DNA of 64,000 nt from positions 30,153 through 94,152 of the forward strand of contig CALRBE010000003.1 in the NCBI GenBank assembly GCA_943354005.1, in the 5' to 3' direction. Within the stretch, counting starts at the first letter, position 1. Each line of letters begins with the position of its first letter. Of the stretch, positions 4,958 to 51,410 are shown piece by piece. The notes below the pieces were generated by a model that ran no database searches, was not told where the DNA came from, and was given only the letters and a program-made list of their open reading frames with translations. This stretch comes from an uncultured Candidatus Saccharimonas sp. GTDB taxonomy: Bacteria; Patescibacteriota; Saccharimonadia; Saccharimonadales; AWTP1-31. A program made the translations under genes and the position numbers.

Positions 4958-5061
4958 TAAATAAAATATACCAAAGTATTCATACTAAAAGTTTGATTAC
5001 AAAAACATTTAGTCTCTAATAATATGCCTAGTATTAAATTATTAATACGCTTGTGCTTTAG

Positions 5062-5769: not shown

Positions 5770-5791
5770 TAGATACAATGAGGAGATTAAA

Positions 5792-6880: not shown

Positions 6881-6888
6881 GGAATACC

Positions 6889-16660: not shown

Positions 16661-16709
16661 TAAATTTTACCTTTGTACTTAATTTTATAAATATAGATAC
16701 TCAACATGA

Positions 16710-17885
16710 TTATTTGGTTCTCCTAGATGCAGTATTCTTATCAATCAATATAGCATCGAGCGACCTAAAAGCTTTTTGCCAGCTTAGTTGTTTTGAAAGA
16801 ATTATTGATTTATTACTTTTTTCATCCCATCTATTCTTTTTTGTAAATATACCAACCTTTTTAGCAAAGTCATTAACGTCATCATAGTATATAGTAGCGT
16901 CATCGAGTAATTTATCGCGTCGCCAACTAGGTGATATGACAGGTAAGCCAAACGACATGTATTCTAGCTGTTTTGAAGAAAAACTGTTTTTACGTAGCGG
17001 ATCCTTACTAATAGTAATCAGCCCAAACTGATAATCTTGCATGATATCTTTTGTAGGAGCATAGCCTTTATAATTTATTCCGTATGATATTGGAGGCTTA
17101 GGACCACCAAAAACATCAATATTTTTATTACTTCGGCATAGTTCACCCAACAGACTAAGATTTACCCAGCTCCCCTTAAGAAGCCCCATAAATATAATTT
17201 TAGGCTCGGCATTATATTTTGCCTTGAACGATTTCTGATTTACGCCATATGACATATCTATGAAGTTAGCGCCATTATATTTGTGAGCTTTTACGTATTC
17301 GGCATAAGTATGCCAGTGAAACGAGATATGGTCTGCGCGAGAATACATTTTAACTTCATATTTTTTATACTTTCTGTAAGTTTTATTAGTGATTAGTCCT
17401 CCATAATATTTTTCTTCAGCTTGCGGTGAAGGTAGGTCAAGAATCTGTATATCCGCGACGCGTTTATGTTCTAAAAATGCAATATCTGAGTTATTTTCAC
17501 ATATTATAATGTCTGGTCTTTTGATACATAACAAGTCATGTACGATTTTACCCCTTAAATACAGAATTTTCATCAAAAACATAGAATTAGTATGGCGAGA
17601 TATTTTGTTTCCAGTAAATCTATTGAAGAGCGAACTTGCTACTTCAAGTACGTACAAAATAAATTTACGTGGCGAAGTACCCGGAAATGCAATTCCAATA
17701 CCATTTGACGAGAATCTGCTTAGATACCTTGTCGATACTAGCTCAGTATATATACCCTTACTGGTGAAATACGCTTCTAATTCCTTAGGTTTTACGGAAT
17801 TTGCAAATGCATCAATACTGCATAGTATAACAACTTTATTAATTGAATAATTATCTTTCATTCCATCTCTTTCTATTTTTACCAC
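16710..17885 (-). CDS. putative glycosyltransferase (GT1-fold, GT4-like C-terminal motif)
   Basis: QLEYMSFGLPVISP resembles the E-x7-E / FGLPxLEAM-GxPVI region of GT4 enzymes. Sits inside the polysaccharide cluster. Confidence 0.45.
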   Translation of the reverse strand: MVKIERDGMKDNYSINKVVILCSIDAFANSVKPKELEAYFTSKGIYTELVSTRYLSRFSSNGIGIAFPGTSPRKFILYVLEVASSLFNRFTGNKISRHTNSMFLMKILYLRGKIVHDLLCIKRPDIIICENNSDIAFLEHKRVADIQILDLPSPQAEEKYYGGLITNKTYRKYKKYEVKMYSRADHISFHWHTYAEYVKAHKYNGANFIDMSYGVNQKSFKAKYNAEPKIIFMGLLKGSWVNLSLLGELCRSNKNIDVFGGPKPPISYGINYKGYAPTKDIMQDYQFGLITISKDPLRKNSFSSKQLEYMSFGLPVISPSWRRDKLLDDATIYYDDVNDFAKKVGIFTKKNRWDEKSNKSIILSKQLSWQKAFRSLDAILIDKNTASRRTK

Positions 17886-18988
17886 TTTATACTCATGCTA
17901 GTAAGGGTGTACTCGGAAACTCCTAGCCACTCGGGTTTAAGGTATAGTTGCGCAAAAGAAATAATTAATAACGCGAACATAATTATTAATCTCAAGCTGC
18001 GTATATAAGGAGTCCTGGGGGTGTGCTTAAAGAAATCTGGTATTCCGGTTACGCTATACATTAAATACAAATTCGATATTCTACTTATTGAGTTTACCTT
18101 TACTGCAACAGCGCTAAACACTGTACTCAATAGTAAAATTTTTATATAAAATGATTTAAGAATATTATCTTTTTCAAAGTATGTAATATTGTTTAAGCGA
18201 TAGATCGTAAAGAGTAAAACAGTAATCATTAAAATTATAAGAAATGTAATTACACTACCTATACTAAAGCTATTCAATCTATCGACGTAGAAATAATACC
18301 TAGCGTTTGAACCGGCTAGCCCATAGATTATGTTATTTATCAATAAAAGTAAGGTTATCGTAGCTAGTGCGCTAACGGTCATATTGTGTTTAGATACTTT
18401 CTTGCCGTAAAGAAAATATGGTACTAGCATGAGTAGACTAGATTGATGAATTAACGTAGCTAATAATACCAGTGCTATGTATTTAATTAATTTTCTTTCT
18501 AATATATAACCGAAGCCCCAGGCTAGTACACCCATTGCGAGTGACTGCCTAAATGTATTCATTGTTCCAAAAAAGAATAATGAAATAAAAATTATCATAC
18601 TAAATAAATAGTCTGAGGAATATTTTTTTATAAATCTATAAAAAGAATAGTAAACAAACCCATACGATATTAAAAAATATGTTGTGAAAGACGAGAATAA
18701 ACTACCTATCGAATAAGTGTAGAAGGTAAACCCATTCTCAAAACCATTGACACTAAACAAGTTGACAATACTAACGCCATTGAGAGTTTTAATACCTTCT
18801 TCTTGAAGCAGTCTAAAAAACTGATAATAAGGAACTGTGTCTGCCCCAACGGTTAGCCCACGCAGGCTAGCAATTAACCATAGTATTATAAACGAGATAA
18901 AAAGAGCCGTAACATTAAGTTTTCTATACTTTTTAGTAGAAATCAGCAGTGCAGATATTACCAAAATAGTTACATAATATATAACCAT
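17879..18988 (-). CDS. EpsG/Wzy-like polysaccharide polymerase (multi-TM)
   Basis: 369 aa, about 10 TM helices. N-terminal LRGLTVGADTVPYYQFF resembles the EpsG family start. Confidence 0.5.
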   Translation of the reverse strand: MVIYYVTILVISALLISTKKYRKLNVTALFISFIILWLIASLRGLTVGADTVPYYQFFRLLQEEGIKTLNGVSIVNLFSVNGFENGFTFYTYSIGSLFSSFTTYFLISYGFVYYSFYRFIKKYSSDYLFSMIIFISLFFFGTMNTFRQSLAMGVLAWGFGYILERKLIKYIALVLLATLIHQSSLLMLVPYFLYGKKVSKHNMTVSALATITLLLLINNIIYGLAGSNARYYFYVDRLNSFSIGSVITFLIILMITVLLFTIYRLNNITYFEKDNILKSFYIKILLLSTVFSAVAVKVNSISRISNLYLMYSVTGIPDFFKHTPRTPYIRSLRLIIMFALLIISFAQLYLKPEWLGVSEYTLTSMSIKW

Positions 18989-18992
18989 AGTA

Positions 18993-20102
18993 TTAGACCT
19001 TTAGGCACCTTCTGTACTCATCAGTAGTTCTTTTGCTTATATAATCCCAGTTATGGTGTTTGCTGATATACAATCTGGAATTTTCTGACATCTTTTTAAG
19101 TACATTTTTATTTATACTTAGGTCGAGAATAACTTTTGCTATGACTACTGGATCATCTGATACCGCAAAACCCAATTTGCTTTTTGATATAGCTTCTTTC
19201 ATTGAAGTTCCTTCTGTAGCAATTGTAGGTATACCAAAACTCATAGCTTCTAGCATGCCCATTGGCTGACCTTCACTGCGCGACAACTGAACAAAACAGT
19301 CATGTTTAAGGAGTAATTGTATTTTGTCGTTACCAAAAACCGCTTCTTGAAGCTTAACTATTTTATCTAGTTCATACTTACGTATTGATTCTTGGATTAT
19401 AGATTTATTATTATCAAAGTCTGTGCCTGATATTGAAAATGTGATGTTACAGTCGTTCGTTTTGTTTTTTATAATACGAGCCACTTCTATTAATCTATCT
19501 AGTCCTTTTTGATTAATATCAAGCCTGCCAACATATACTAATTTTAGATCATCATTATTGAAGTTTGACTTTACTTCTTTAGGTAAAGCCATGCCGTTGC
19601 TAGAAACAAACGAGCTAGTGCTCCATTTAGCAGAGCTCTTTTTTTCGAATTCTGATAGATAATGTATGGCTTCTGAGCCTTTAATGAATCTATTAAATAA
19701 CAAAATGTTAGCAACTTGCTTTTTGTGTTTTTTAGAATATTGGGCTACATCAGTAAGAGATGAATGCGGGACTATAATATATGGGATCCCCCTTTTTTTT
19801 AGTTGTTTGCTTATTGTTATAAATACCGGCCAGTATACTTCGTGAAAAACTACAAGACTTGGGCTATTATGTGGTTCGGGTAATTTTGACACATTAGTAC
19901 CAAACCTTTGAATTGTATACACAGGATATTTTTCCTTCGACTCAGACGGGATATATTCATTTATGTTTAAAAGAGCAACATTTGCATACTTTGATTGGCC
20001 CTCTAGGTGCTTTGGCACAACAACACAAACTCCATTAAATTTTTGATCACGAATATTACCAACATGTACTATATTTAATTTTTTGTTATTTGTTTTGGAC
20101 AT
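18993..20102 (-). CDS. glycosyltransferase family 4 (GT-B)
   Basis: SEGQPMGMLEAMSFGIPTIATEG matches the EGFG..LEAMA.G.PVIAT motif. Confidence 0.8.
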   Translation of the reverse strand: MSKTNNKKLNIVHVGNIRDQKFNGVCVVVPKHLEGQSKYANVALLNINEYIPSESKEKYPVYTIQRFGTNVSKLPEPHNSPSLVVFHEVYWPVFITISKQLKKRGIPYIIVPHSSLTDVAQYSKKHKKQVANILLFNRFIKGSEAIHYLSEFEKKSSAKWSTSSFVSSNGMALPKEVKSNFNNDDLKLVYVGRLDINQKGLDRLIEVARIIKNKTNDCNITFSISGTDFDNNKSIIQESIRKYELDKIVKLQEAVFGNDKIQLLLKHDCFVQLSRSEGQPMGMLEAMSFGIPTIATEGTSMKEAISKSKLGFAVSDDPVVIAKVILDLSINKNVLKKMSENSRLYISKHHNWDYISKRTTDEYRRCLKV

Positions 20103-20103
20103 T

Positions 20104-20874
20104 TTACGCCCTCCTTAATATGGCATTAACTAAGTACCATGAAAAATTGTAAGTAGAAGATATGAATCTTAATTTCTCGATATCTCTATATAAATTCCAA
20201 GTTCTCTTTAACGCTGTAAGTTTATTAGCAGACAACGATTCTGCTGTACGACGATAATACGAAAATATCTCATTCAGACCATTAGCATTATCAATTGTCT
20301 TGAGAATCTTCCACCAAGTTGCAGTGTCCTGACCTCTCTTGATTAAAGGCATGTGAATTGTGTCCTTCTCTAATATATGAGTATCTAGCATGACAGTAGA
20401 GGTCCAGATCGTAGTATTCTTTAGTGCTTGTTTATACGTAATTGTTTCTGGCACGTGGACCTTCTTGCCATTTGGTTTACCATTTTCGTCTGCAAACTCA
20501 TATCCAGTAAAAGAGAAGGCTGCATTTTTTTCTTGCATGAATGCAACCTGAAGTTCTAGCTTATTCTTAACCCATAGATCATCTGCATCTAGAAATGCTA
20601 GGTAGCGGCCTTTTGCATTATCGATCCCAGTATTGCGTGCAATCGCCGCACCTGAATTTTCAGACAACATGAAAAACTTGATGCGTTTATCTTTTTTCAG
20701 ATACTTCTGAATAATTAGTACACTATCGTCGGACGAACAATCGTCGACTAGAAGCAGTTCCCAGTTTTGATATGTCTGGTTTTGTACAGTCTGGATAGTA
20801 TCATCCATGAAGCGAGCTGCGTTATATACAGGCACGACAATACTAACAAGAGGTTGTTTGCTTTCTTTTGCCAT
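20104..20874 (-). CDS. glycosyltransferase family 2
   Basis: LVSIVVPVYNAARFMDDTIQTVQNQTYQNWELLLVDDCSSDDS is a GT2 N-terminal signature including the DxD region. Confidence 0.85.
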   Translation of the reverse strand: MAKESKQPLVSIVVPVYNAARFMDDTIQTVQNQTYQNWELLLVDDCSSDDSVLIIQKYLKKDKRIKFFMLSENSGAAIARNTGIDNAKGRYLAFLDADDLWVKNKLELQVAFMQEKNAAFSFTGYEFADENGKPNGKKVHVPETITYKQALKNTTIWTSTVMLDTHILEKDTIHMPLIKRGQDTATWWKILKTIDNANGLNEIFSYYRRTAESLSANKLTALKRTWNLYRDIEKLRFISSTYNFSWYLVNAILRRA

Positions 20875-20878
20875 CCTA

Positions 20879-21490
20879 TTATCCTCGCTGATCCTTCAGG
20901 AGACTTAGTTCAGTATGGATACCGTGCTTCTCAATCTCACGACTACCTTTAGCTACAATTGCTTTGAACGTTAAGAATACTATCTTTGCATCTTCACGAG
21001 GCGAGATACGGTTAACGTATCCAAGATCGTAATCAATCTTTTTATAAATTGAAAGGCTATTTCTGCCATGTACCTGAGCTAGGCCAGTCATACCAGGAAG
21101 TACATCAACGCGGTGGCGTTGTTCTTTAGTCATAAACTCATAGTATTCAGGTATCCAGGGACGTGGTCCTATGAATGACATCTCACCCTTTACGATATTG
21201 ATAAGCTGCGGAATCTCATCCACTGACAGTGCGCGAACATACTTACCGACTGTAGTCAGTTGATTACCTTTAGTAATATCTCGTACATCGTTATTGTGTG
21301 TCATTGTACGAAACTTATAGATCTTAAAGTTCACGCCTCTAATCCCGGTGCGTTCTTGTCGAAACAGTACTGGGCCTTTGCTTGATAACTTGATCAGAAG
21401 GGCAGTGAACAGTGTAAGCGGTAGCGTAAGCACTATGACTGCTACTGCGAGCGTTATATCAAGTGGTCTTTTGACATAACGCTTATACAC
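20879..21490 (-). CDS. undecaprenyl-phosphate sugar phosphotransferase (bacterial sugar transferase, PglC/WcaJ C-terminal type)
   Basis: KRPLDITLAVAVIVLTLPL...GPVLFRQERTGIRGVNFKIYKFRTM is the conserved core of priming hexose-1-phosphate transferases. Confidence 0.85.
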   Translation of the reverse strand: MYKRYVKRPLDITLAVAVIVLTLPLTLFTALLIKLSSKGPVLFRQERTGIRGVNFKIYKFRTMTHNNDVRDITKGNQLTTVGKYVRALSVDEIPQLINIVKGEMSFIGPRPWIPEYYEFMTKEQRHRVDVLPGMTGLAQVHGRNSLSIYKKIDYDLGYVNRISPREDAKIVFLTFKAIVAKGSREIEKHGIHTELSLLKDQRG

Positions 21491-21495
21491 TTTAT

Positions 21496-22359
21496 CTACC
21501 TAGTGTTCTTTTTATCTTTTTCTTGGGTAGGAAGAATCGATTTAGCACGCTTAGATATGTAGCTGCCAAATGAATTAGTCTTCTTAGCCTTCTTGTCTAC
21601 GAAAGTACGGCCTGTAACCCATTTCTTGTCAGCAATGTTATTTGCTGCACGAGTTGTAGCTACAACTTGTGGTGCTGCTGCCTTAACTGTCTTTTTCTTT
21701 GCAGGTGCAGCTTTCTTTGTAGTTTTCTTGACTGGAGTAGCTTTTTTTACTGTCTTTTTCTTTGCAGTCTTCTTTGGTTTAGGGTTGTTTAAGCGGTAAT
21801 CGTAAAGGAAGAATAGACCTATGATAGAACCCATGAATCCAACCATGCTTGCAAGAATAAGTTGTAATCCAGTGCGTACGTTATACGGAGTAGAGCTATA
21901 GCTTGCTGTGTCTACAATCTTAATGTTTTCTTTGTTGTAGAGATTCTTAATTTCAGTTTTAAAAGTACTGATGATACCGTTAGTTACTTTTTCACTATCT
22001 TGAGGACTCTTAGTAGTTACATTAAGCTTAATAACTTGTGTATCTTTACTTGTAGTTGTATCTACAGAACCGGCAAGTGATTCGTAGCTTAGATTAATGT
22101 TATTAGAAGTAATAACATTTTCTAGAACTCTACGAGACTTAATAATTTCACTATAGTTATTGATAAGGGTAGCTGTACTAGCCGCATCTTTTACATCTGT
22201 ATTAATAACAAGAAGTGTTGCAGTACTCTTATACATTGGTACCTGAATGAAGTTGTTATATATAACTCCAGCTGACAGCCCAATGACTGTAGCAATTACT
22301 ATTACAAACCAATTCTTGGCGTAAAATTTTAACAGATGATATAAATTAATTTCTTGCAC
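21496..22359 (-). CDS. Wzz-like chain-length determinant / polysaccharide co-polymerase with lysine-rich C-terminal tail
   Basis: N-terminal TM, periplasmic-type domain and second TM. Then a tail KPKKTAKKKTVKKATPVKKTTKKAAPAKKKTVKAAAP resembling histone-H1 AKP repeats. Confidence 0.55.
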   Translation of the reverse strand: MQEINLYHLLKFYAKNWFVIVIATVIGLSAGVIYNNFIQVPMYKSTATLLVINTDVKDAASTATLINNYSEIIKSRRVLENVITSNNINLSYESLAGSVDTTTSKDTQVIKLNVTTKSPQDSEKVTNGIISTFKTEIKNLYNKENIKIVDTASYSSTPYNVRTGLQLILASMVGFMGSIIGLFFLYDYRLNNPKPKKTAKKKTVKKATPVKKTTKKAAPAKKKTVKAAAPQVVATTRAANNIADKKWVTGRTFVDKKAKKTNSFGSYISKRAKSILPTQEKDKKNTR

Positions 22360-41719: not shown

Positions 41720-42857
41720 GCTAATTAATAGTCGATGGGGAGCAAAAGAAAAACGATTCTATACCCGTTGGGCTAATCATCTTCGTCTCGAAAAACCACG
41801 CTATTGGTTTAAGGAAAGATCCATCTTTCAGAAGATCATGCTCATATTTCTTTCAATACTGATTTTTTTGGTTGGCTGCATGTATGGTATCGCTCAGTGG
41901 TACATAGCGAGCACTAAATCTCAAGAGTTTAAATTTGGTGCTACTTTCATACCAAGCTATGCCCGTTACTTCGGATTAGAGCCTAAGGATACTCTGCAGG
42001 CCATGATAGATGAGCTTGGGATTCGACACTATCGTTTCGTAAGTTATTGGGATGAGATCGAAAAGACTCCTGGTGTATACGATTTTAAAGAACTTGATTG
42101 GCAATTTGAAAAAGCCCGCGCTTCTAACTCCACCGTCACATTAGCAATTGGCCTTAGACAACCAAGATGGCCGGAATGTCATATGCCAACATGGGCATCA
42201 TCTCAGCCTAAGGATGTTTGGTATCCACAACTTAAGACTTTCATGACCAAAGTTATTGAGAGATACAAAGATGTGCCATTCCTGGAAAGCTACCAACTAG
42301 AAAATGAGTTTTTCTTAGATGTCTTTGGTATTTGCCCAGACTTCAGTAGAGATAGGCTGATAGATGAATATAACTTAGTGAAGTCACTTGATCCTAACCG
42401 AACACTTATTATTAGCCGTAGCAATAATGCGCTAGGACTACCTGTAGGCAAACCACGTCCGGATAAATTTGGTATATCAGTATATAAGCGGGTATGGGAT
42501 AGGACAGTTACAAAACGCTACTTTGAATATCCATTCCCAGCCTGGTTCTATGGTTTCTTAGCAGGTGCAGGCAAGATTGTGACAGGCAAGGACATGATAA
42601 TCCATGAGCTCCAAGCAGAGCCATGGGGCCCTGATTTAGGCATACCGGAAATGAGCATTGAGGAACAGAACAAGTCATTGGATGCACGTCGCCTGACGGA
42701 TCGTATTGCATACGGCAAAGCGACTGGCATGCGAGAAGTAGACCTCTGGGGCGTGGAAATGTGGTACTGGCGTAAGGTTAAACTCAATGATCCAAGTCTC
42801 TGGGAAGCAGGGAAGAAAGCTATAGATGACCAACAGTGTCGGGCATGCTACGAGTAG
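41661..42857 (+). CDS. membrane-anchored TIM-barrel glycoside hydrolase-like protein
   Basis: N-terminal TM helix. The Trp/Tyr-rich ...YQLENEF region resembles a clan GH-A catalytic strand. Confidence 0.4.
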   Translation: MTKKTKVQKETKKSLAEERKLINSRWGAKEKRFYTRWANHLRLEKPRYWFKERSIFQKIMLIFLSILIFLVGCMYGIAQWYIASTKSQEFKFGATFIPSYARYFGLEPKDTLQAMIDELGIRHYRFVSYWDEIEKTPGVYDFKELDWQFEKARASNSTVTLAIGLRQPRWPECHMPTWASSQPKDVWYPQLKTFMTKVIERYKDVPFLESYQLENEFFLDVFGICPDFSRDRLIDEYNLVKSLDPNRTLIISRSNNALGLPVGKPRPDKFGISVYKRVWDRTVTKRYFEYPFPAWFYGFLAGAGKIVTGKDMIIHELQAEPWGPDLGIPEMSIEEQNKSLDARRLTDRIAYGKATGMREVDLWGVEMWYWRKVKLNDPSLWEAGKKAIDDQQCRACYE

Positions 42858-42878
42858 CCACTCCACCGATACTCTCTT

Positions 42879-43367
42879 TTGCGGTACAATAGCTACATTG
42901 TGAAGAAGAAAAATACACAACCAAAGCTGATTTCCAACCGACGCGCTCGTCATGACTATGAAATTGACGATACACTTCTTGTTGGCATGCAGCTTACTGG
43001 AGCCGAGACTAAAGCACTGCGCCACGGGCACGGACAGCTTCGTGGTGCCTATATTACGGTAAAAGACGACGAACTATACTTACTTAATGCTACTATCTCA
43101 AGCTTGCCCGGAGTATCGATTCCTGAAGCAGAACAGACTAGAACACGAAAGCTTCTTGCAAAACGCAGCGAAATTAATAAACTTATTGCGCTTAAACAAC
43201 AGGGCAACGCAATAGTGCCGCTAGCAATACTAACTGGTAATCGCTACATAAAACTACGTATTGCAGCTGGACGAGGAAAGAAACAGTACGATAAACGCCA
43301 AACACTCAAAGCTAGAGATCAAAACAGGGAAGCTAACGCAGCGATTAAAGATAAGGTACGCTCATGA
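42879..43367 (+). CDS. smpB: SsrA-binding protein SmpB
   Basis: ISNRRARHDYEIDDTLLVGMQLTGAETKALRHG...LYLLNATIS is the canonical SmpB core. Confidence 0.85.
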   Translation: MRYNSYIVKKKNTQPKLISNRRARHDYEIDDTLLVGMQLTGAETKALRHGHGQLRGAYITVKDDELYLLNATISSLPGVSIPEAEQTRTRKLLAKRSEINKLIALKQQGNAIVPLAILTGNRYIKLRIAAGRGKKQYDKRQTLKARDQNREANAAIKDKVRS

Positions 43368-43870
43368 GTGAAGATGCAATAGTTCATATTTTTAACGAAG
43401 ATAATGTCAAAATAGGCGAGATTCCACGTAAGGATCTCACAATCGAGCATAAATGGCGGATTATTTGCGTATGGATTGAAAATGACAAAGGCGAAACCTT
43501 GCTACAGCAGCGATCACTAAAGAAAACACATGGCCCTGGTCTCTGGACGGTCGCAGTTGAAGGAACAGTTGAAAATGACGATTCATTTGAGGAGACAGCA
43601 AGAAGAGAAATCGAAGAAGAAATTGGACTTAAAGAATTTACAATGACAACAGCAAAACGTATTAGCTTTGAAGCCGCAACTGGCTGGAGAGATGCCCAAG
43701 GATATATCGTCCGATGTAACTGGCCAATAGAAAAATTTACTGTTCAAGCTAGTGAAGTCGAGAAGTTGCAATGGAAGAACAAAAAAGATGTTATTCGTGA
43801 AATGAAGGCTCAAGATCCTAAGTATCCAAAACAAGCCCCAATCTGGCTTGAAATGTTTGACCTTGTCTAG
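43364..43870 (+). CDS. NUDIX hydrolase
   Basis: Nudix box GTVENDDSFEETARREIEEEIGL. Confidence 0.75.
   Translation: MSEDAIVHIFNEDNVKIGEIPRKDLTIEHKWRIICVWIENDKGETLLQQRSLKKTHGPGLWTVAVEGTVENDDSFEETARREIEEEIGLKEFTMTTAKRISFEAATGWRDAQGYIVRCNWPIEKFTVQASEVEKLQWKNKKDVIREMKAQDPKYPKQAPIWLEMFDLV
43840..43870. repeat. 31-bp direct repeat, copy 1 (3' end of NUDIX gene including its stop)
   Basis: AATCTGGCTTGAAATGTTTGACCTTGTCTAG. An identical copy lies at 44762-44792, and flanking similarity extends the match to about 55 bp. Confidence 0.8.
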
Positions 43871-43906
43871 CGGACTGTTTTTCTAGTTATATTGCCCCTG
43901 GAGTAT

Positions 43907-44500
43907 TTAAGCCAAATCACTACTAAGATACTTCTTAAGCAAAGAAAAGGGATCAACGTCTTCAATTGATTTTAGGTATTCTTTCCACTCTTTATCATCT
44001 AGTTCAGCAAGGCTTTTATTTGGAAAGGTTGGATGGCCATATACATATAGTAAATCCGTCCACCCATGAAGATTTGTACCTTTTGGTTTATTAGTTATAA
44101 ATCCAACCTCGTTGGCAACTAGTACTTTATCCTTTTTGCCATCATAGTAAGCAACCGCGTATGAAAAGATAGCTCTTCGATCTTTTTCGTCTGCCATAAG
44201 CTTTATAAGTCCCTTATAGCTAAAACTATCAAGCAGTAATTTCACAAATGGCCCTGGAAAGCCATTAAGTGCAGGTATAAAAAAGCCTCTATCATCGACA
44301 ATGATTTTTTTATTTGGAAATGCTTTTTTTGCTTGAGCTAGTTTATATTTTGCGACAGCTTCTATACTTAATTCACGCCCCTCATCAAAGTCGTAAATCT
44401 GTTGCTTCAGAGTAATGCCGATTGAGCCCAACTGTTTTTTAAGACTCTCATATTTCTTTTTATTTGATGTAATAAAATATATATCTTGCGCCTGTTTCAT
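43907..44500 (-). CDS. Ham1/ITPase-family non-canonical purine NTP pyrophosphatase, divergent paralog A
   Basis: FITSNKKK (vs ATGNxGK) and DDRGFFIPALNGFPGPFVK (vs DDSGL.VDALNGAPGVYSAR) match the ITPase/RdgB core. Confidence 0.65.
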   Translation of the reverse strand: MKQAQDIYFITSNKKKYESLKKQLGSIGITLKQQIYDFDEGRELSIEAVAKYKLAQAKKAFPNKKIIVDDRGFFIPALNGFPGPFVKLLLDSFSYKGLIKLMADEKDRRAIFSYAVAYYDGKKDKVLVANEVGFITNKPKGTNLHGWTDLLYVYGHPTFPNKSLAELDDKEWKEYLKSIEDVDPFSLLKKYLSSDLA

Positions 44501-44761
44501 CTAATAATCTCCTTAATAAGTATATCCTCGTCCCAAATACCCCTTACTTTACGTCTAAGGTATAAGTAATATATTTTTAATGTAGAGTCGTAGACTTTAG
44601 TATCAATATCAGGGTTATTCACTTTAACTCCATACATTAAGATAAATATCATATTGAATACGAATATGCAATTCTATAAAAGTTAACTGCAATTGGTCAA
44701 TACAAAAGACGTTATTAGGTTAATGATAACTAAAGACCTAGTATTTCCAAAAGCAAGTAAC

Positions 44762-44792
44762 AATCTGGCTTGAAATGTTTGACCTTGTCTAG
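44762..44792. repeat. 31-bp direct repeat, copy 2
   Basis: Identical to 43840-43870. It preserves the reading frame of the last 13 codons of the NUDIX gene but has upstream stops, so it is a non-functional gene-end copy. Confidence 0.8.
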
Positions 44793-44834
44793 TGGGCTGT
44801 TTTTAGATATAATTTGACAGTTGTAGAACAATAT

Positions 44835-44909
44835 TCGGGAGTAGCTCAATGGTGGAGCAAGAAGCTGTTAACTTCGAGGTTGCCGGTTCGAGTCCGGCCT
44901 CCCGAGCCA
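44835..44909 (+). tRNA. tRNA-Asn (anticodon GTT)
   Basis: Cloverleaf: acceptor TCGGGAG/CTCCCGA, D-stem GCTC/GAGC, anticodon loop CTGTTAA (U33, GUU, A37), T-arm GCCGG-TTCGAGT-CCGGC, discriminator G, encoded CCA. Confidence 0.9.
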
Positions 44910-44914
44910 ATCAT

Positions 44915-44940
44915 AAGCACTTTTTAGGAAGTGCTTTTTT
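44915..44940 (+). terminator. rho-independent terminator after tRNA-Asn
   Basis: AAGCAC-loop-GTGCTT hairpin followed by TTTTTT. Confidence 0.5.
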
Positions 44941-44992
44941 CAATAGAATATAAATAATATACATATGAGTAAACTATATTTAAGAAATCTTT

Positions 44993-45832
44993 ATGGAAAG
45001 ATCTGAAATAATTATCCCTGTTTTTAATGGCGAGCGACATCTGGGCAGTCTACTGGAATCATTATCGCATCAGACTATAGAACAATACTCGGTAACGATC
45101 GCGGACAATGGATCAACTGACGGGTCGATTGCGGTCGCAGAAAGTTTTAGGGATATATTCGAGCTAAAAATTATTGATGCATCTCGCAAGCAGGGCAAGG
45201 CTGTTGCACTCAACGAAGCCGTAATAAAATCCTCTGCTCAAAAATTGATCTTTGTTGATCAAGACGATATGGTTAACACTTCATACGTTGAATCCATGGC
45301 TGAAGCCATCGCGCAAAATCCTTTAGTGGCATCAACTATGGACGGAGAATTGTTAAACAAGAAGTTCGAGGTAGCACCACGGATTATTACCCGCGATCAA
45401 AGACTAGGGCATTTTGCCATTACGACCGTCTCGGGTGGAACAATGGGCATGACTAGAAAGGCTTTTGAGCACATAGGCGGTTTTAATGAGGACTTTAATT
45501 ATTCAACTAATGATGCAGAATTTTGCCAACGAGCTTACGCAAAGGGTTATGATTTTAAGCTTGTCTATGATGCAACCTTGTTTTACCGATTGCGCGATAC
45601 TCTTATTGGTAATTTACAGCAGGGCATAGGATATGGCATAGGAAACTACCAACTTGCTAAAATTCACCCGGAAATGCGAGGCGACCAAGCTACATCTAGA
45701 CAACTGCTTCAGGAAACAATCGCACTAGCTGGAAACTTTATAGCTAATAAATCTAATAGGGCGCGTAACTCTCATCTTATTGGAAAAAATGTCGGGCAAA
45801 TGCAAGAAAAGTTACGAACTTTTCTTTACTAA
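44993..45832 (+). CDS. glycosyltransferase family 2
   Basis: IIIPVFNGERHLGSLLESLSHQT...ADNGSTDGS and a DQDD motif. Confidence 0.7.
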   Translation: MERSEIIIPVFNGERHLGSLLESLSHQTIEQYSVTIADNGSTDGSIAVAESFRDIFELKIIDASRKQGKAVALNEAVIKSSAQKLIFVDQDDMVNTSYVESMAEAIAQNPLVASTMDGELLNKKFEVAPRIITRDQRLGHFAITTVSGGTMGMTRKAFEHIGGFNEDFNYSTNDAEFCQRAYAKGYDFKLVYDATLFYRLRDTLIGNLQQGIGYGIGNYQLAKIHPEMRGDQATSRQLLQETIALAGNFIANKSNRARNSHLIGKNVGQMQEKLRTFLY

Positions 45833-46222
45833 ATAATTAAATACATCTACGTAGTAGGGGTCCATCGAGCTGTCTATTCCCCGAATAATTATTTCTTCTA
45901 CGCTAAGCCACTCATAGCCTTGATGTTCCCAGCTTAAGCGTACCGCTAAATCATTTTCACTAACATTCGCGTTAAAAAGTACGTGATTTACATTAGGGTA
46001 ATTTATTTCAAAAGCCTCACTTGTTTGACTGCTCGTAATTACGATGCCTGTTTCTTCTTGAATCTCACGGATAATTGCATCTTTAATTTGCTCTCCCTCT
46101 TCGACTTCACCACCCGGAAGGTCTAAGTGTCCAGGAAAATGTGGATGTGTCTTACCCCTATATAGCAAAAGTAGCTTTCCGTCTAAATTACGGACTAAGG
46201 CCTTAGCAACGATCTTCTTCAT
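45812..46222 (-). CDS. NUDIX hydrolase
   Basis: Nudix box GGEVEEGEQIKDAIIREIQEETGI. 136 aa. Confidence 0.75.
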   Translation of the reverse strand: MKKIVAKALVRNLDGKLLLLYRGKTHPHFPGHLDLPGGEVEEGEQIKDAIIREIQEETGIVITSSQTSEAFEINYPNVNHVLFNANVSENDLAVRLSWEHQGYEWLSVEEIIIRGIDSSMDPYYVDVFNYLVKKSS

Positions 46223-46275
46223 CTAACCAGTTTAGCATCCTTGCTAAATATATAGAAGTATGATAAAAATACCTT

Positions 46276-46917
46276 ATGAATTCAACAGAGGTGAAGTCAT
46301 TTTTCGAGTATGACGTAGAAAGTCGTATAATTAAATCTGATAAACTATCATGCAACATCGACGAAGCATTAAAAAGAGTCCAAGCATGGAAAAAAAATGG
46401 TTTTACAATAGTCTTTACTTCGGGGGTCTTCGACATTCTTACACTAAATCACCTACTGGGATTGTATCACTACAGAATGCTGGGTGGAGATAAAACTAAG
46501 CTTGTAGTATCCATAGATACCGATGAACGTGTTAAATCATCAAAAGCTTTCAATACTTCTAAGGGCGGGTCAGTTAAACCAATCTTGTCTTGGGATAACC
46601 GAGCACTGATGATTGCGAAGCAAGCCACTAACGAGAGTAACATACTAGTAGACCTAATTCTTCAGCACGGAAGTGACACCTGCAGAGGTGTATGTCCGCA
46701 TGACGATAACGTAAGTATTGCAGAAAATTTACAACCAGACTTAGTAGTAGTTAACAGTAAGAGTCGGGATACTATTTCGAAGCTAGAACAAAGTACTATA
46801 ATTTCAAGTAATAATATACTAATTATTCAAGAAGAAGAATTAGCATATGAAGATGAACTACTTGGTGGCAAAATCAGTAATGCCAAAATTATAAATAGGA
46901 TAAAAAATGGAAACTAA
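46276..46917 (+). CDS. cytidylyltransferase-like (HIGH-nucleotidyltransferase fold) protein with degenerate HxGH motif, paralog 1
   Basis: TSGVFDILTLNHLLGL aligns to the G-x-FD-x-x-H-x-GH motif with H replaced by T and G by N. The C-terminus LLGGKISNAKIINRIKNG resembles the ISST-x-I-x-RI motif of TagD/RfaE-type enzymes. Confidence 0.4.
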   Translation: MNSTEVKSFFEYDVESRIIKSDKLSCNIDEALKRVQAWKKNGFTIVFTSGVFDILTLNHLLGLYHYRMLGGDKTKLVVSIDTDERVKSSKAFNTSKGGSVKPILSWDNRALMIAKQATNESNILVDLILQHGSDTCRGVCPHDDNVSIAENLQPDLVVVNSKSRDTISKLEQSTIISSNNILIIQEEELAYEDELLGGKISNAKIINRIKNGN

Positions 46918-47617
46918 CGCAGAGTTAACAAATAACTTTATTAATCAGTCTATAAATAACCGTATCGTCAATTGGACTGGTGAAGATAAGTGTACTGCAG
47001 AAGCTACGAGTACACTTGTAGATACTTGGCATCGAACTGGAAGCTTTGTTGTGGCAAATGCTGGCGGCTATGACTCTATGGGCCTTAATCACCTGAGAGG
47101 CCTAATGCAAGCACGAATTATTGGTGCGATACACCTGTTAGGTGGCGAGGGGAGTGTAAACGATATTTATGAACTTGCAAGTTCAGAAGATATTCGACTG
47201 CTTATTTCACTAGATACAAACGATGCACTTGAAGAGAACAAATCATATAAAGCAAACGGTGCCTACTCTGTTCGGCCTTTACTCGATTGGGATACTAGAG
47301 CGCGCACCCTCGCACTTCAAGGATTTGGAGGCGGTCGTGAATTAGTAGACTTCATAACTAAGCATGGTCCACTTGCATGTAGCGTTTGCGTAGCGGAAAG
47401 TTGCAATCACTCAAGTAAAACATTCAATATTGCCGATAGTGGAGCAGATCTAATTGTATTGAAGGATATTAATACTGACCAATTAGCTAACTATCCAAAC
47501 ACTTCGTTTCATGTGATAGAAGAGACAGAGGGAGCCTTCCATGACAAATTACTCGGTGGGCAAATCAGTACCTCAGCACTTGTTCGGCGCATAATTCAAA
47601 AAGATAAAAAAATATGA
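46907..47617 (+). CDS. cytidylyltransferase-like protein with degenerate HxGH motif, paralog 2
   Basis: NAGGYDSMGLNHLRGL and C-terminal LLGGQISTSALVRRI are co-linear with the upstream gene (tandem duplication). The two genes overlap by 11 nt. Confidence 0.4.
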   Translation: METNAELTNNFINQSINNRIVNWTGEDKCTAEATSTLVDTWHRTGSFVVANAGGYDSMGLNHLRGLMQARIIGAIHLLGGEGSVNDIYELASSEDIRLLISLDTNDALEENKSYKANGAYSVRPLLDWDTRARTLALQGFGGGRELVDFITKHGPLACSVCVAESCNHSSKTFNIADSGADLIVLKDINTDQLANYPNTSFHVIEETEGAFHDKLLGGQISTSALVRRIIQKDKKI

Positions 47618-48597
47618 GTAGGCCGCTAGTTTCAATTCTTATTCCAGTTACAAAAAATGAAGCAGATTGTTTACCGGCAACACTTCATTCAGTCAGGGAG
47701 GATATAAAAAATTTTGGTAAAAAGTCAGAGATTATAGTCATCGCAAATAACTGTAAGGGAACAAGTGATCTGGTTGCAGAGGATGTATTCGGGAGTGAAG
47801 ATTTCAAAGATGATATGGCAGTTGGCAAAGTGATACATTGCGACACACCAGGTAAGATGTTTGCAGTCAACAAGGGCATCGATATTGCCGAGGGCAAGTA
47901 CCTAATCCTTATTGACGGCGATTTACTAATGGATCCGGGTTCAATCGCTTGGACGGTTGACGCGATAGATAAACCCGACGTCACGGTTGTAAGTATGCAT
48001 CACGTGCCAATTGAAGGTACGTTGCCGGAAGATGCAGATCTCGCTCGCGTAATAATGATGAACTCCTACCGTCGCCATTCTTTCCCAGAAAAGTACTGGC
48101 TACACGGCGCATATTTAGGATGGTCAAGCAGCTTCATGATTGAGGGTGAAACCCTTCGATTTCCTGCAGGTGCTCGTGTTCATGAGGATAATTGGTTAAC
48201 TGCAATTATTGCTAGAGATTACGGCTTTCATACAATACGAGTTACAAAGAACTATATGGCTCGTTTTATACCTCCGCAAACCTGGGAGGATTACTACCGT
48301 CAACAGTGGAGATATCAGTTTGCGCACAAAGACCTTGAGGAAAGTTTTCCAGAACTTGCTGAATTTATACCTACAATACGTCGGTGGACAAACAATAAAT
48401 ATCCAGAAGATTGGATCGACAGAGAATGGCGTGAAAAGTGTATCTTTGAGGGTATTGATTTTGATGAGTTTATTAGTATATATAATAAAGTACTCGCTAA
48501 AGTCCGCACGGGTCGTCAAGAGTCACGTGAGTTGCTTGATAAAAACGGAGTTTGGAAACAGCAAATTACAACCAAGCATGATAGGCGAAATGAATAA
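47614..48597 (+). CDS. glycosyltransferase family 2-like protein
   Basis: VSILIPVTKNEADCLPATLHSV... and a DGDLLMD (DxD) motif. Start overlaps the previous gene (ATGA). Confidence 0.6.
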   Translation: MSRPLVSILIPVTKNEADCLPATLHSVREDIKNFGKKSEIIVIANNCKGTSDLVAEDVFGSEDFKDDMAVGKVIHCDTPGKMFAVNKGIDIAEGKYLILIDGDLLMDPGSIAWTVDAIDKPDVTVVSMHHVPIEGTLPEDADLARVIMMNSYRRHSFPEKYWLHGAYLGWSSSFMIEGETLRFPAGARVHEDNWLTAIIARDYGFHTIRVTKNYMARFIPPQTWEDYYRQQWRYQFAHKDLEESFPELAEFIPTIRRWTNNKYPEDWIDREWREKCIFEGIDFDEFISIYNKVLAKVRTGRQESRELLDKNGVWKQQITTKHDRRNE

Positions 48598-48653
48598 CCA
48601 ATAGAGTCAATCCTAAAGATTTAATTCATTAATAGCCATAATGCTGCCGATTA

Positions 48654-48669
48654 GAGTCCGGCCTCCCGA
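48654..48669 (+). repeat. direct repeat of tRNA-Asn 3' end (putative att-type repeat)
   Basis: GAGTCCGGCCTCCCGA is identical to tRNA-Asn positions 44890-44905. It is followed by a hairpin plus T-tract, like the tRNA terminator. Confidence 0.6.
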
Positions 48670-48711
48670 TCCAAAATGATTTTGCTTAATGAACTTCGTT
48701 AGAAGTTATTT

Positions 48712-49329
48712 TTGTTTGATATAGTTATAACCATGAATATAGAAGAACAACAGCTATTAGATAAGTTAAGGTTGGCAGTAAAAGAGCGTTCCGACGATGA
48801 TAATTTCGTTCATCATAAATGGTTTATAAAATACCACTTGGAAATAGTAGAAAACATTGCCACCGAACTTTGTGAGAAATATTTGGATGCCAATAGATTC
48901 AAAGTATTGGTATTGACGTGGTTGCATGACTACGAAAAGATTATAGACTTTGACAACCAATATAATACAGAGCTTGAAGCGACTAAAGATCTTATGCGAA
49001 TGATTGGATTTAAGTCTGATTTTATTGAAGAAATAGCTATTGATCTCAATACGTATAATGCTAAAGAAAATCTACAAGTCGCATCGATAGAAATCCAAAT
49101 CGTTTCCTCGTCTGATGCTGCATCACATTCTGTCGGGCCGTTCGTGTGCCTTTATTGGTATGAAAATCCAACGCTTAGTGTTGATGAGCTTATGGCAGCC
49201 AACATTCGAAAAATTTCAGTTGATTGGGAAAAGAAAATTACGCTACCTGAAGTAAAAGAAGCGTTTGCAAAATACCGTGCCTTTAATTTGCAAGTTGCTG
49301 GTCAGCTTCCAGAAAAATACCTTATTTAA
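48712..49329 (+). CDS. HD-domain phosphohydrolase-like protein
   Basis: FVHHKW...H...LTWLHDYEKI fits an H...HD pattern. Confidence 0.4.
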   Translation: MFDIVITMNIEEQQLLDKLRLAVKERSDDDNFVHHKWFIKYHLEIVENIATELCEKYLDANRFKVLVLTWLHDYEKIIDFDNQYNTELEATKDLMRMIGFKSDFIEEIAIDLNTYNAKENLQVASIEIQIVSSSDAASHSVGPFVCLYWYENPTLSVDELMAANIRKISVDWEKKITLPEVKEAFAKYRAFNLQVAGQLPEKYLI

Positions 49330-49332
49330 TAT

Positions 49333-49479
49333 TCAAACAGCCAAAACATCCATAATTGTTTGTAGCTTTTGTTTATCAAAGTCTATACTTGCAGTTCGCA
49401 ACTCGTCAATAACTTTAGCGACTTTCTCGATAACCCAGATTTTTGTGTGAATATCGCCAACTGCCAATACTTTTCCCAT
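49333..49479 (-). CDS. small ORF (48 aa) with strong RBS; N-terminal segment duplicated as a remnant at 53425-53475
   Basis: Minus-strand ATG at 49479 is preceded by TAGGAGA. Protein is MGKVLAVGDIHTKIWVIEKVAKVIDELRTASIDFDKQKLQTIMDVLAV. Segment TKIWVIEKVAKVIDE recurs as TKTWIIDKVAKLIKD (no start codon) at 53425-53475. Confidence 0.3.
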   Translation of the reverse strand: MGKVLAVGDIHTKIWVIEKVAKVIDELRTASIDFDKQKLQTIMDVLAV

Positions 49480-49513
49480 ATCTTCAGTATCTCCTATAAA
49501 AGTTTAGCTATAC

Positions 49514-49711
49514 TTACCGAGTAATCTTTCGTATACGCTCTCGTATCGACTCTTGATACAGGACAGGATTTTGCATTTGGTGATATGCGCGAACGGCGAT
49601 AACCTCAAAACGATCATCATCAACGAGATAAATAACTGCGACTTTATGATTTTTCTTCTTAATCTTACGCACATCTGGGTCATCCTTAAACACAGAGTTA
49701 GATCGTGGCAA
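49514..49711 (-). pseudogene. RelE/ParE-family toxin C-terminal fragment (probable remnant)
   Basis: HKVAVIYLVDDDRFEVIAVRAYHQ matches the RelE/ParE core (xRIIYxVDDExxxVxILRIxHR). The ORF is only 65 aa and lacks the N-terminal half. No antitoxin lies upstream. Confidence 0.4.
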
Positions 49712-49732
49712 GTTTTGCAGGCTTGCTATAGT

Positions 49733-50482
49733 CTACATATCTGTTTCGTTCAACGCGTCTTGTATAACAACATTAGGGTTGAACTCATAATCTATTCCAC
49801 GGATTAGAACCGCTGGTTTGTTGGTGCCACGTTGCCCCATGATTAATGCAGCTGATGCTGCAACCATGTCGCACAAAGTCTCTTCAGCAACTTGTGTTTT
49901 ACCTTCATCGGATATAGACTCAGTTACTCTAAGTGGAGGTACACCATATACGCCAATTGCTAATTGTGTAGCGCCTTTTTTGTCTTCACGGCCATCACTA
50001 TCAGTAATGATTATGCCCACATTGATTCCTGTAGTTTCTAGGATTCTTTGGCCTATTCGCTTGGCACTTTCATCGGAATTTTCTGGTAACAATATGACAG
50101 TCTCGGCACTCATCTTATCTACGCCCGCGCTAGTAAGTCGCAAGCCGTTAGGCAACCAACCAGCAATATAATTACCCTGAATCTCCAATCTACTTCCATC
50201 AGGCTTACCGGTCTCATCAATCATGAGCTGTAAAGTACGTACGTCTTTACGTGGTACTCGTTCGTGTATTTGTTTAGCAATTTCTCCCGCATCAACATCT
50301 ACCAAATTAATTTGTCTTTGCTCAGCAATTGACACTGCTTTTGAGGCAACACAAATGATGTCATTTTCTTCCAATATAATGCCGGCTGATTTAATTGCAG
50401 TTAAGAGGATGTCTCCGATTTCTTGTCCAGACTCAATGTAGGGTATGTTTGGTAATGTTTCTACGGTTATACGGTCGCTCAT
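49733..50482 (-). CDS. CofE-family gamma-glutamyl ligase-like protein (F420-0:L-glutamate ligase homolog)
   Basis: Co-linear with CofE: LPENSDESAKRIGQRILETTGINVGIIITDSDGR and KPAVLIRGI match the family blocks LPENPDESA...GVIITDTNGR...PAVVVRG. Confidence 0.75.
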   Translation of the reverse strand: MSDRITVETLPNIPYIESGQEIGDILLTAIKSAGIILEENDIICVASKAVSIAEQRQINLVDVDAGEIAKQIHERVPRKDVRTLQLMIDETGKPDGSRLEIQGNYIAGWLPNGLRLTSAGVDKMSAETVILLPENSDESAKRIGQRILETTGINVGIIITDSDGREDKKGATQLAIGVYGVPPLRVTESISDEGKTQVAEETLCDMVAASAALIMGQRGTNKPAVLIRGIDYEFNPNVVIQDALNETDM

Positions 50483-50712
50483 AAGTTAACTCCTTGTTTA
50501 CTTAATAATAGTCGAGTTCTCATGATTGCGCGAGAGGACATCTTGAACTTATTATCTTTAGCATAAGTTTCAACCGTGACTAATGAATCGTTTTGGAAGT
50601 ATTTAAAAATCCTGTTGAGGATAGTATCGTAACCTACTTCTCCTTCTGTTACAGGTACGTATTCCTTTTGTCCGTTTGAGAATACATAGTGTTTTTTTGA
50701 TATACTTAACTT

Positions 50713-51255
50713 ATGAAAATATACTTTATAACTGGAAATGCCAGAAAAGTTGGCGAGGCGAAGCTTGCTTGTGAGCTCGCAGGAATAGAAATAGTTCAAC
50801 AGCAAGTAGAAATTGATGAAATCCAATCGACAGTTCCTCACGCTATATCTATTGATAAAGCCGAGAAAGCATACAATTTAATCAAGAAACCTCTGGTTGT
50901 AACGGACACCTTTTGGAGAATACCGGCACTTAATGGTTTCCCCGGAGCATACATGAAAGATATCGCTAACTGGTTTAGTAGTGAAGATTTCCTTTCACTT
51001 ATGGAAATGAAAGAAAACAGACAGATATTCTTTAGTGAGAATATTACTTATAAAGATACTGAAACCATTAAGCAATTCTCGCAGGAATATGAGGGAATTA
51101 TTGTCACAGAGCCTAGAGGAACGGGAAATAGTATAGAAAATGTTGCCCAATTCGAAGGATTCACCCTGGGTGAGAGACGTGAACAAGGTGGATACAGCCA
51201 TAAGCCTGAAGATTATGTTTGGAATGATTTCGTAAAATGGATTAACAAAAAGTAA
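50713..51255 (+). CDS. Ham1/ITPase-family NTP pyrophosphatase, divergent paralog B
   Basis: MKIYFITGNARK, TDTFWRIPALNGFPGAYMK and EPRGTGNS match the ITPase core. It shares the ALNGFPG(P/A)(F/Y)(V/M)K variant with paralog A. Confidence 0.65.
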   Translation: MKIYFITGNARKVGEAKLACELAGIEIVQQQVEIDEIQSTVPHAISIDKAEKAYNLIKKPLVVTDTFWRIPALNGFPGAYMKDIANWFSSEDFLSLMEMKENRQIFFSENITYKDTETIKQFSQEYEGIIVTEPRGTGNSIENVAQFEGFTLGERREQGGYSHKPEDYVWNDFVKWINKK

Positions 51256-51410
51256 TCGAATCAGTTCAAGCTATATTTTCTTAATTTAAAGCAATCTATT
51301 TTATCAATCTCATAGATTACAGTTCACAATGTTTTGCTAACGCGAGATAAGGCTAGAACTAAGATTAACAGAGTAGAAATACCTCAGTTTTTTTGGGTTA
51401 TACTGTAGAT

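Follow-up and report, generated by a model that had tools for sequence, protein, structure and literature searches.

A small islet without an integrase gene at the 3′ end of a tRNA-Asn gene in an uncultured Candidatus Saccharimonas

Introduction

The high-pathogenicity island of Yersinia is found at asn tRNA genes and has a 17-bp repeat. In staphylococci, composite islands of staphylococcal cassette chromosome (SCC) and pseudo-SCC elements are located at the 3′ end of rlmH, and many of these cassettes lack a recombinase. The minimal mobile elements of Neisseria are different whole-gene cassettes between the same conserved flanks, without flanking direct repeats. Here we report on a 3.7-kb segment (from here: the islet) that lies between a tRNA-Asn(GTT) gene and a displaced copy of the 3′ end of this gene. 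It is part of a stretch of 64,000 nt (from here: the window) from an uncultured Candidatus Saccharimonas sp. (GenBank assembly GCA_943354005.1, contig CALRBE010000003.1, positions 30,153 to 94,152 of the forward strand), a bacterium of the candidate phyla radiation (CPR). Two further points of reference are the geometry of islands integrated into tRNA genes (tDNA), as catalogued by Islander (PMC4383910), and the cis-mobilizable elements (CIMEs), as defined for streptococcal ICE families (ICE: integrative and conjugative element; PMC6323972).

Like the Islander-type islands, the islet is bounded by an intact, regenerated tRNA on one side and by a direct repeat, the displaced 3′ fragment, on the other, it targets tRNA-Asn and its accessory cargo is absent from relatives. 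It differs from them by the lack of any integrase gene that could be found, by its small size with only five genes, by its native-like composition and by its CPR host. With CIMEs it shares the attL/attR-like flanking repeats, an islet in which no integration or transfer genes were found, and a site that in relatives shows tandem arrays separated by att remnants, as in accretion. Unlike for CIMEs, no cognate ICE or integrase was identified, the attR copy deviates at 4 of 31 nt and may no longer be functional, and mobilization is putative.

The resemblance to SCC and pseudo-SCC elements extends to small cassette arrays, short direct repeats, the location at the 3′ end of a conserved gene and the many cassettes without a recombinase. 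Moreover, the recombinase beside a second copy of the five-gene module, at a related locus (L092; related loci are given such numbers throughout), is of the large serine type, with weak matches to CcrB/CcrC and XisF. In contrast to SCC, the target is a tRNA gene, and nothing links the L092 recombinase, which has no homolog in the window, to the att sites. As for the minimal mobile elements of Neisseria, differing whole-gene cassettes are found between conserved flanking genes in related genomes, but each cassette here is bounded by a tRNA 3′ remnant and a terminator. Natural transformation has been used experimentally in the lineage to which the islet host belongs. Integron arrays also consist of small, recombinase-free tandem cassettes with a recurring boundary sequence between them; unlike in integrons, neither IntI nor an attC-type imperfect palindrome was found, the boundaries are tRNA-derived and every one of them brings its own terminator and promoter-like TGnTATAnT. 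In literature searches, islets bounded by tRNA sequence were not found described for Saccharibacteria or Patescibacteria. We consider the islet genuine and its kind of mobile islet rather ordinary; its value is that it documents a hotspot for cassettes in Saccharimonadales and, among the cargo, a rare family of proteins.

Results

The 3′ end of tRNA-Asn is repeated on the far side of five genes

The tRNA-Asn(GTT) gene is the only tRNA gene called by ARAGORN in the window. Rfam matched it as well (RF00005, 44835-44906, 64.5 bits) and detected no other RNA family in the window. The core of the repeat, the 16-mer GAGTCCGGCCTCCCGA, occurs at exactly two sites in the 64 kb, those given in the initial annotation, with up to 2 mismatches allowed, and 100 dinucleotide-preserving shuffles gave zero matches at the same threshold (0 expected by chance). 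The similarity reaches beyond this core to 27 of 31 nt between GTTGCCGGTTCGAGTCCGGCCTCCCGAGCCA in the tRNA gene and GCTGCCGATTAGAGTCCGGCCTCCCGATCCA in the downstream copy (Table 1), which comprise the entire T-arm, the 3′ acceptor strand, the discriminator and the CCA of tRNA-Asn. The four mismatches are the discriminator itself (G in the tRNA, T in the fragment) and three positions 5′ of the core. No tRNA was called at attR, either by ARAGORN or by Rfam. The 16-mer is not a frequent sequence, with the two copies in the window and 7 matches in IMG/VR, all of them by chance and within high-GC coding DNA. Between the repeats, at approximately 44910-48673, five tightly packed genes are located.

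Each copy of the repeat had also been described as being followed by a hairpin and a T-tract. For the first copy this is clearly the case, with 9 pairs at 44915-44936 (-9.6 kcal/mol, z -4.3). The hairpin after the second copy (48692-48707; 6 bp, followed by ATTTTTG) is weaker, with -7.7 kcal/mol over 46 nt and z -2.3, and does not pass the GC criterion of the terminator scanner; in the alignment, relatives have stronger terminators in its place.

Table 1. Features of the islet and of its conserved flanks in the window
Feature	Position	Strand	Remarks
smpB, conserved left anchor outside the islet	42879-43367	+	PF01668 in the identical gene of L002
Promoter-like site 5′ of the tRNA gene	44785-44813	+	TTGTCT-17-TATAAT, 10/12 matches; consensus match only
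tRNA-Asn(GTT), attL side	44835-44909	+	ARAGORN; intact, CCA encoded
attL copy of the repeat	44879-44909	+	perfect 16-nt core at 44890-44905
Intrinsic terminator 3′ of tRNA-Asn	44915-44941	+	homologous to the terminator after tRNA-Asn in L004
GT2a, GT2 glycosyltransferase, 279 aa	44993-45832	+	PF00535, E 1.4e-21
NUDIX hydrolase, 136 aa	45812-46222	-	PF00293, E 5.9e-19
Cytidylyltransferase-superfamily paralog 1, 213 aa	46276-46917	+	degenerate HxGH; no Pfam match
Cytidylyltransferase-fold paralog 2, 236 aa	46907-47617	+	rare family; no Pfam match
GT2b, GT2 glycosyltransferase, 327 aa	47614-48597	+	PF00535, E 4.6e-14
attR, partial copy of the tRNA-Asn 3′ end	48643-48673	+	27/31 nt; perfect core at 48654-48669
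Weak hairpin and T-tract	48692-48714	+	homologous to the AAAGACTTC..GAAGTCTTTTTT terminator before the HD gene in relatives
HD-superfamily protein, 198 aa, conserved right anchor outside the islet	48733-49329	+	no Pfam match for the window copy

The same site in related Saccharimonadales carries other genes or none

Related loci were gathered with the HD-superfamily protein encoded on the right flank as the anchor; its homologs are annotated as Candidatus Saccharimonadales, and a metagenome scan with this protein recovered only two short loci. The contig with the islet itself was matched identically in the metagenome-assembled genome GCA_943358135.1 and in a Logan assembly. Comparison of window positions 42800-51300 with six relatives (L088, L004, L087, L086, L084, L006) by blastn gave homology that stops at the tRNA gene (44832-44910, or 44940 with the terminator in L004) and resumes at 48668-48720, leaving 44941-48667 unmatched in all six. 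These breakpoints at the tRNA and at attR support the geometry of an integration into the tRNA 3′ end.

The six relatives have either no cargo or cargo of a different kind at this site, and none of them shares the content of the islet. An empty site, which had been suggested as a check, exists in L088 (79% identity of the HD protein), where smpB, a gene for a 3D-domain protein and tRNA-Asn are followed by the HD gene after 94 bp. An 84-codon CdiA_C-like fragment lies between tRNA and HD gene in L004 (82%), whereas the tRNA-Asn in L087 (79%) is followed by a DUF1398 gene, an MFS transporter gene, the degenerate remnant AAATTCGAGACCGGTTAGTTGAGCCA and a terminator. The closest relative by the HD gene is L086 (88% protein and 86% nt identity), with two remnants delimiting unrelated cassettes, one kinase-like and one with a CdiA_C toxin. 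Two remnants also surround a single-gene cassette in L084 (76%), beside an Mrr-like gene (assigned by eye), and L006 (58%) has copper-resistance genes plus an AIR-synthase-like gene. In L089 (72%), the 3′ end of tRNA-Gln is repeated without a mismatch over 22 nt, 262 nt downstream and directly before the HD gene. The islet is absent from the related genomes, and an unoccupied site exists. A contig break in the Logan assembly (L001/L003) was considered as a presence/absence polymorphism and dropped, since the gap at 44791-44834 lies upstream of the tRNA.

Boundary modules recur between cassettes

An alignment of 13 junctions revealed a recurring unit, consisting of a tRNA 3′ end or remnant ending with GCCA, AGCATAAGCAC, the hairpin AAAGACTTC..GAAGTCTTTTTT, TTTG(C/A)TATA(C/G)T and the start codon ATG of the gene that follows. 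In the window, L004, L084 (twice), L086, L089 and L090, the motif CCA followed by A(G/T)CATAAGCA was present after the end of tRNA-Asn, the end of tRNA-Gln or a remnant. Tandem remnants were observed in L084, L086, L005 and L092; in L005, at a tRNA-Lys gene, the array is nested and its single-gene cassettes look deaminase-like and kinase-like by eye.

We scanned 98 fetched loci from CPR and DPANN with 42 tRNAs for same-strand downstream copies of the last 22 nt of each tRNA, allowing ≤4 mismatches. Such a copy exists for 8 of the 42 tRNAs, a fraction that is not a genome-wide estimate because the loci were selected through the HD gene. The upstream control gave only one match, and this was a neighbouring paralogous tRNA-Ser gene.

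Three side observations concern these boundaries. Noncoding inserts of 80-260 nt separate the tRNA from a perfect or near-perfect copy of its 3′ end in L005 (8291-9340), L013, L018, L024, L030 and L089, and the inserts of L089, L005 and L024 share GAAGTTYCGGGG / GGGCCTGCGGWACGTAGG just 5′ of the remnant at different tRNAs (Gln, Lys and His). In nine related loci Rfam detected only tRNAs and one tmRNA, and the inserts matched no RNA family; they could be miniature elements or deletion scars. Secondly, a 30-nt arm, AGTTATAACTTC(C/A)TCTATCGT(TA/AG)TGAGCCAAG, is found 5′ of the remnant in L086 (~2722-2760) and L092 (~7625-7660), next to unrelated cargo; its conserved part AGTTATAACTTCMTCTATCGT had no match in IMG/VR. 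Thirdly, the window contains another fragment resembling a tRNA 3′ end at 1333-1363 (+), ATCGGGGGTTCGAATCCCTCCGCCCTAGCCA, with T-arm, acceptor strand and GCCA and without a tRNA or Rfam match. It adjoins a ParE toxin gene (632-1152, -) and a small upstream open reading frame (ORF), possibly the antitoxin, and may be the attR of another islet whose tRNA is located outside the window.

The islet encodes enzymes of putative glycan modification

The gene content that had been read from the islet, two GT2 glycosyltransferases, a NUDIX hydrolase and two cytidylyltransferase-like paralogs, agrees with the Pfam matches, the paralogy and the fold matches. The 213-aa and the 236-aa protein are paralogous (27% identity, E 5e-29). 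The former matches rfaE_dom_II/HldE, the heptose-1-phosphate adenylyltransferase domain, at E 2e-7 to 9e-8, which is below the family cut-off. For the 236-aa protein an AlphaFold (AF2) model was obtained with pLDDT 72 and pTM 0.75. Foldseek searches with it retrieved the CTP:phosphocholine cytidylyltransferase 3hl4 (E 8.5e-5), HldC 5xf2 and ECT structures, at probability 1.0 and target-normalised TM-scores of up to 0.65. Thus, a Rossmann-like nucleotidyltransferase fold is predicted for both proteins.

The predicted nucleotidyltransferase activity is uncertain because the catalytic HxGH motif is degenerate in both. It reads FDILTLNH in the 213-aa protein and YDSMGLNH in its 236-aa paralog, with another residue in place of the first His and NH instead of GH; N61 and H62 are invariant in the family. 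The family of the 236-aa protein is rare: a set of 5.8e9 proteins contained 24 clusters of it and one of 1.84e9 contained 97 representatives. A tblastn search with the 236-aa protein gave no match in the PLSDB plasmids, and sequence-profile searches of the PDB gave only non-significant matches for this family and none for the HD family. Taken at the level of protein families, which is a low resolution, the five genes suggest that a nucleotide-activated precursor may be made or edited and transferred to a cell-surface glycan, polymer or lipid carrier. No phage structural, replication or packaging genes are among the cargo, which consists of GT2, NUDIX and nucleotidyltransferase-fold genes only.

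Elsewhere in the window, a surface-polysaccharide locus (14676-22359, -) encodes VanZ, two unassigned large proteins, an EpsG-like polymerase, a GT4 and a GT2 glycosyltransferase, a priming sugar transferase and Wzz; this is a possible acceptor pathway for the islet enzymes. House-cleaning genes are dense in the window, with three NUDIX, two HAM1 and one HD gene (2206-2841, 43364-44500, 45812-46222, 48733-49329 and 50713-51255), and their density fits a nucleotide-scavenging CPR lifestyle.

The five-gene module occurs at other loci

In L092/L093 the entire module was found again, with amino acid identities of 48% for GT2a, which is inverted there, 56% for NUDIX, 61% for the 213-aa protein, 64% for the 236-aa protein and 76% for GT2b. 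The NUDIX protein of the islet is 50% identical to its homolog in L094, and GT2b of the islet is 73-76% identical to those of the L092 and L094 modules. The L092 module is bounded by GTGAGCCA plus a terminator on the left and GGTTCTAGACCGACAAGCTGAGCCA plus a terminator on the right, both being tRNA-Asn-like remnants. The left of these boundaries separates the module from a defence cassette with RloB, AAA_15, a MutH-like protein and a DNA methylase. Beside this cassette lie a gene for a small HTH protein and, at the end of the contig, the large serine recombinase with Resolvase, Recombinase and Zn_ribbon_recom domains; together these genes occupy 1-1632 (-) and 2424-7609. In L105, the module is located ~500 bp 3′ of tRNA-Gln(CTG), and in L094-L097 and L106 its surroundings are housekeeping genes without a tRNA close by.

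No recombinase was found in cis

Domain searches detected no integrase or excisionase among the five islet ORFs, in agreement with the initial annotation, and no recombinase or transposase either; for all window ORFs with a length of 150 aa or more the search for recombinase, transposase and excisionase domains was equally negative. A crude regular expression for box II of tyrosine recombinases and a phmmer search with the L092 serine recombinase, applied to the window and 12 loci, returned only the L092 recombinase itself. The islet had been regarded as decayed or integrase-less. The second term is appropriate and the first is doubtful: the noncoding edges measure only 83 bp between the tRNA and GT2a and 45 bp between GT2b and the 31-nt repeat, hence there is no room for an integrase pseudogene, and an islet that never had an integrase, or had it supplied in trans, is therefore at least as likely as decay. 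A split integrase of the SSV type was ruled out, as the genes at the edges are intact GT2 genes.

The reconstructed phage contig IMGVR_UViG_3300033074_000763 (L108; 36,998 bp) in IMG/VR contains 41 nt (7078-7118, -) that are identical to the 3′ part of tRNA-Asn in L004/L087, beginning in the anticodon loop and ending with CCA, together with the terminator. This copy is intergenic, between an SLT gene and genes without known function, and there is no full tRNA on the contig. It appears attP-like. In front of the 41-mer stands TCCGG; pairing between it and the 3′ CCGGA could yield a mini tRNA-like element.

The composition of the islet is native-like

The GC content of the islet is 0.397, compared to 0.386 for the window, and its tetranucleotide distance is 0.153, compared to 0.171 +/- 0.033 for all segments of the same size, 65% of which deviate at least as much. 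The check for a compositional difference from the flanks that had been proposed thus gave a negative result. Distant GT2 and NUDIX paralogs exist in the flanks, at only 24-28% identity.

Conserved flanks, the HD gene and variation upstream of the tRNA

The left flank comprises smpB, a NUDIX gene and a HAM1 gene on the minus strand, the right flank the HD gene, an F420-ligase-like gene and a second HAM1 gene. An SmpB gene is located upstream of tRNA-Asn also in L004, L087 and L088. The stretch between smpB and tRNA-Asn is variable as well: it holds NUDIX and HAM1 in the window (43364-44500), nothing in L004, the gene for the 3D-domain protein in L088 and a GT4 gene plus a gene for a 446-aa protein in L087. 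Two very different tRNA-Asn(GTT) alleles, one in the window and L088 and the other in L004 and L087, occur at similar divergence of the HD gene. In the window and L088 the D-arm and the anticodon arm are identical, with compensatory differences in acceptor stem and T-arm. This pattern hints that part or all of the tRNA gene may have been replaced.

Homologs of the HD protein at 46-49% identity have PF01966, and H27, H65-D66, D128 and H132 are invariant in the alignment. Within 48717-48735, the extended -10-like element TGATATAGT ends 7 nt before the HD ATG, which suggests that the mRNA of the HD gene may be leaderless. Relatives share this arrangement, and it is found at the starts of other cassettes as well. 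The HD gene lies ≤700 nt 3′ of the end, or a remnant, of a same-strand tRNA or tmRNA gene at 10 of ~88 loci, compared to 2.2 expected. The RNAs upstream of it vary (tRNAs for Asn, Gln, Pro, Leu and Glu, and a tmRNA in L011). The association could reflect a hotspot effect, a functional link to tRNA or an HD gene that is the first gene of an older cassette; all three are possible.

Discussion

Taking together the arrangement of the repeats, the points where homology breaks off, the differing content of the site in relatives, the repeated occurrence of the module beside tDNA ends and the lack of a recombinase found in cis, we interpret the segment as a small, CIME-like islet without an integrase that was inserted by Campbell-type recombination at the 3′ end of tRNA-Asn, within a tDNA hotspot, and assign a probability of about 0.6 to this interpretation. 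A circular DNA with a copy of the tRNA 3′ end, possibly including the terminator, would recombine once with the chromosomal tDNA, by which tRNA-Asn would be regenerated and its 3′ end displaced or duplicated. The recombinase would most likely be site-specific and encoded elsewhere, on a co-resident or neighbouring element, and would have been supplied in trans or lost. The islet would then behave as a CIME in a hotspot of tandem accretion; the tandem remnants in L084, L086, L005 and L092 and the recombinase that closes the L092 array are indirect hints of such a mobilization. Later on, homologous recombination within the conserved flanks, at the tRNA and the HD gene, could swap cassettes between relatives.

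Several results weigh against a site-specific integration of this kind. With the exception of L092, no recombinase was identified in the window, the related loci or the phage contig, so that the catalytic step is one that we infer; the 37-kb phage contig, on which no such domain was detected, has no terminal repeats and may be incomplete. The module in L094-L097 and L106 has no tRNA nearby. Between the window islet and the L092 islet, the noncoding edges show no homology and GT2a has the opposite orientation; the module was therefore captured repeatedly and is not one conserved element. GC content and tetranucleotide usage give no signal against the flanks, as would fit an old event or a donor from the same clade. 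Integration at the tRNA 3′ end cannot account for the variability on the upstream side of the tRNA. Finally, the duplicated boundary of 60-90 nt seems to include the terminator, and RecA-dependent recombination is possible at that length.

Some of these points favour the main alternative, a scenario in which no site-specific recombinase is involved and the cassettes move by homologous recombination, which we regard as possible, if unlikely. Either a looped-out circle would be integrated by a RecA-dependent single crossover through the 60-90-nt boundary (tRNA 3′ end, AGCATAAGCAC, terminator and promoter), or a double crossover in the tRNA and HD flanks would follow natural transformation, as for the minimal mobile elements of Neisseria. 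The long boundary modules, with shared sequence that extends beyond the tRNA, the failure to find a recombinase in any cassette save L092 and the variable upstream side of the tRNA are consistent with it, as are the nested duplications of terminator and remnant in L005, which resemble unequal homologous exchange, and the host-like composition that is expected for exchange among relatives. However, the repeats start inside the tRNA, in the T-arm or the anticodon loop and not at arbitrary points, which is a signature of integrase att sites. A single crossover still requires a circular donor with a tRNA fragment, and a double crossover in the flanks yields no direct repeat. The phage contig with its attP-like 41-mer and the L092 array, which ends with a large serine recombinase, also count against this scenario.

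A broader picture, which we put forward as tentative at most, would leave room for either route. The 3′ ends of tRNA and tmRNA genes in Saccharimonadales would serve as landing pads for recombinase-free arrays of 1-5-gene cassettes with boundary modules of ~90 nt (remnant, AGCATAAGCAC, terminator and TGnTATAnT promoter), which would be exchanged by a dedicated recombinase encoded elsewhere, similar to integrons or integrative mobile elements exploiting Xer (IMEX), or by host recombination; the HD gene, so often located after a tDNA end, would belong to the system instead of being a passive bystander.

It appears improbable that the genes are ancestral at this position, the tRNA fragment having arisen by partial duplication on the spot or as a scar left by an older, unrelated element, and that relatives lost or replaced the genes by deletion. 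The native-like composition, the distant GT2 and NUDIX paralogs in the flanks, the L094-L097 module in its housekeeping context and the L088 site, which looks like a hybrid of two boundary types and could be secondarily emptied, would be compatible with such a history. Yet each of the six relatives has different content and no subset of the module, the closest relative, L086, has unrelated cassettes, the module is found beside a different tDNA or tDNA remnants in two other genomes, and the flank paralogs have no more than 24-28% identity. That the repeat arose by chance and has no biological meaning, for which nothing speaks beyond the shortness of its perfect 16-nt core, is effectively refuted by the shuffled sequences, by the match of 27/31 nt that ends exactly at CCA, by its coincidence with the homology breakpoints and by the like geometry at 7 other tRNAs, with the paralogous tRNA-Ser gene as the sole upstream match.

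Conclusions

CPR bacteria and Saccharibacteria are ultra-small episymbionts with reduced genomes, and it is through their cell surface that they attach to the host bacterium. The gain and swapping of accessory genes in these bacteria is poorly documented, and the locus provides a concrete, testable example: at a tDNA hotspot, cassettes for surface glycans, toxins, defence, transporters and metal resistance interchange among close relatives and have no recombinase of their own. The rare cargo family, with ~100 representative clusters among 1.84 billion proteins and a degenerate cytidylyltransferase motif, merits biochemical study. If a trans-acting recombinase or a route by recombination only were demonstrated, the flux of accessory genes in CPR bacteria and Saccharibacteria would be explained, and a natural landing site for the genetic engineering of Saccharibacteria could follow.

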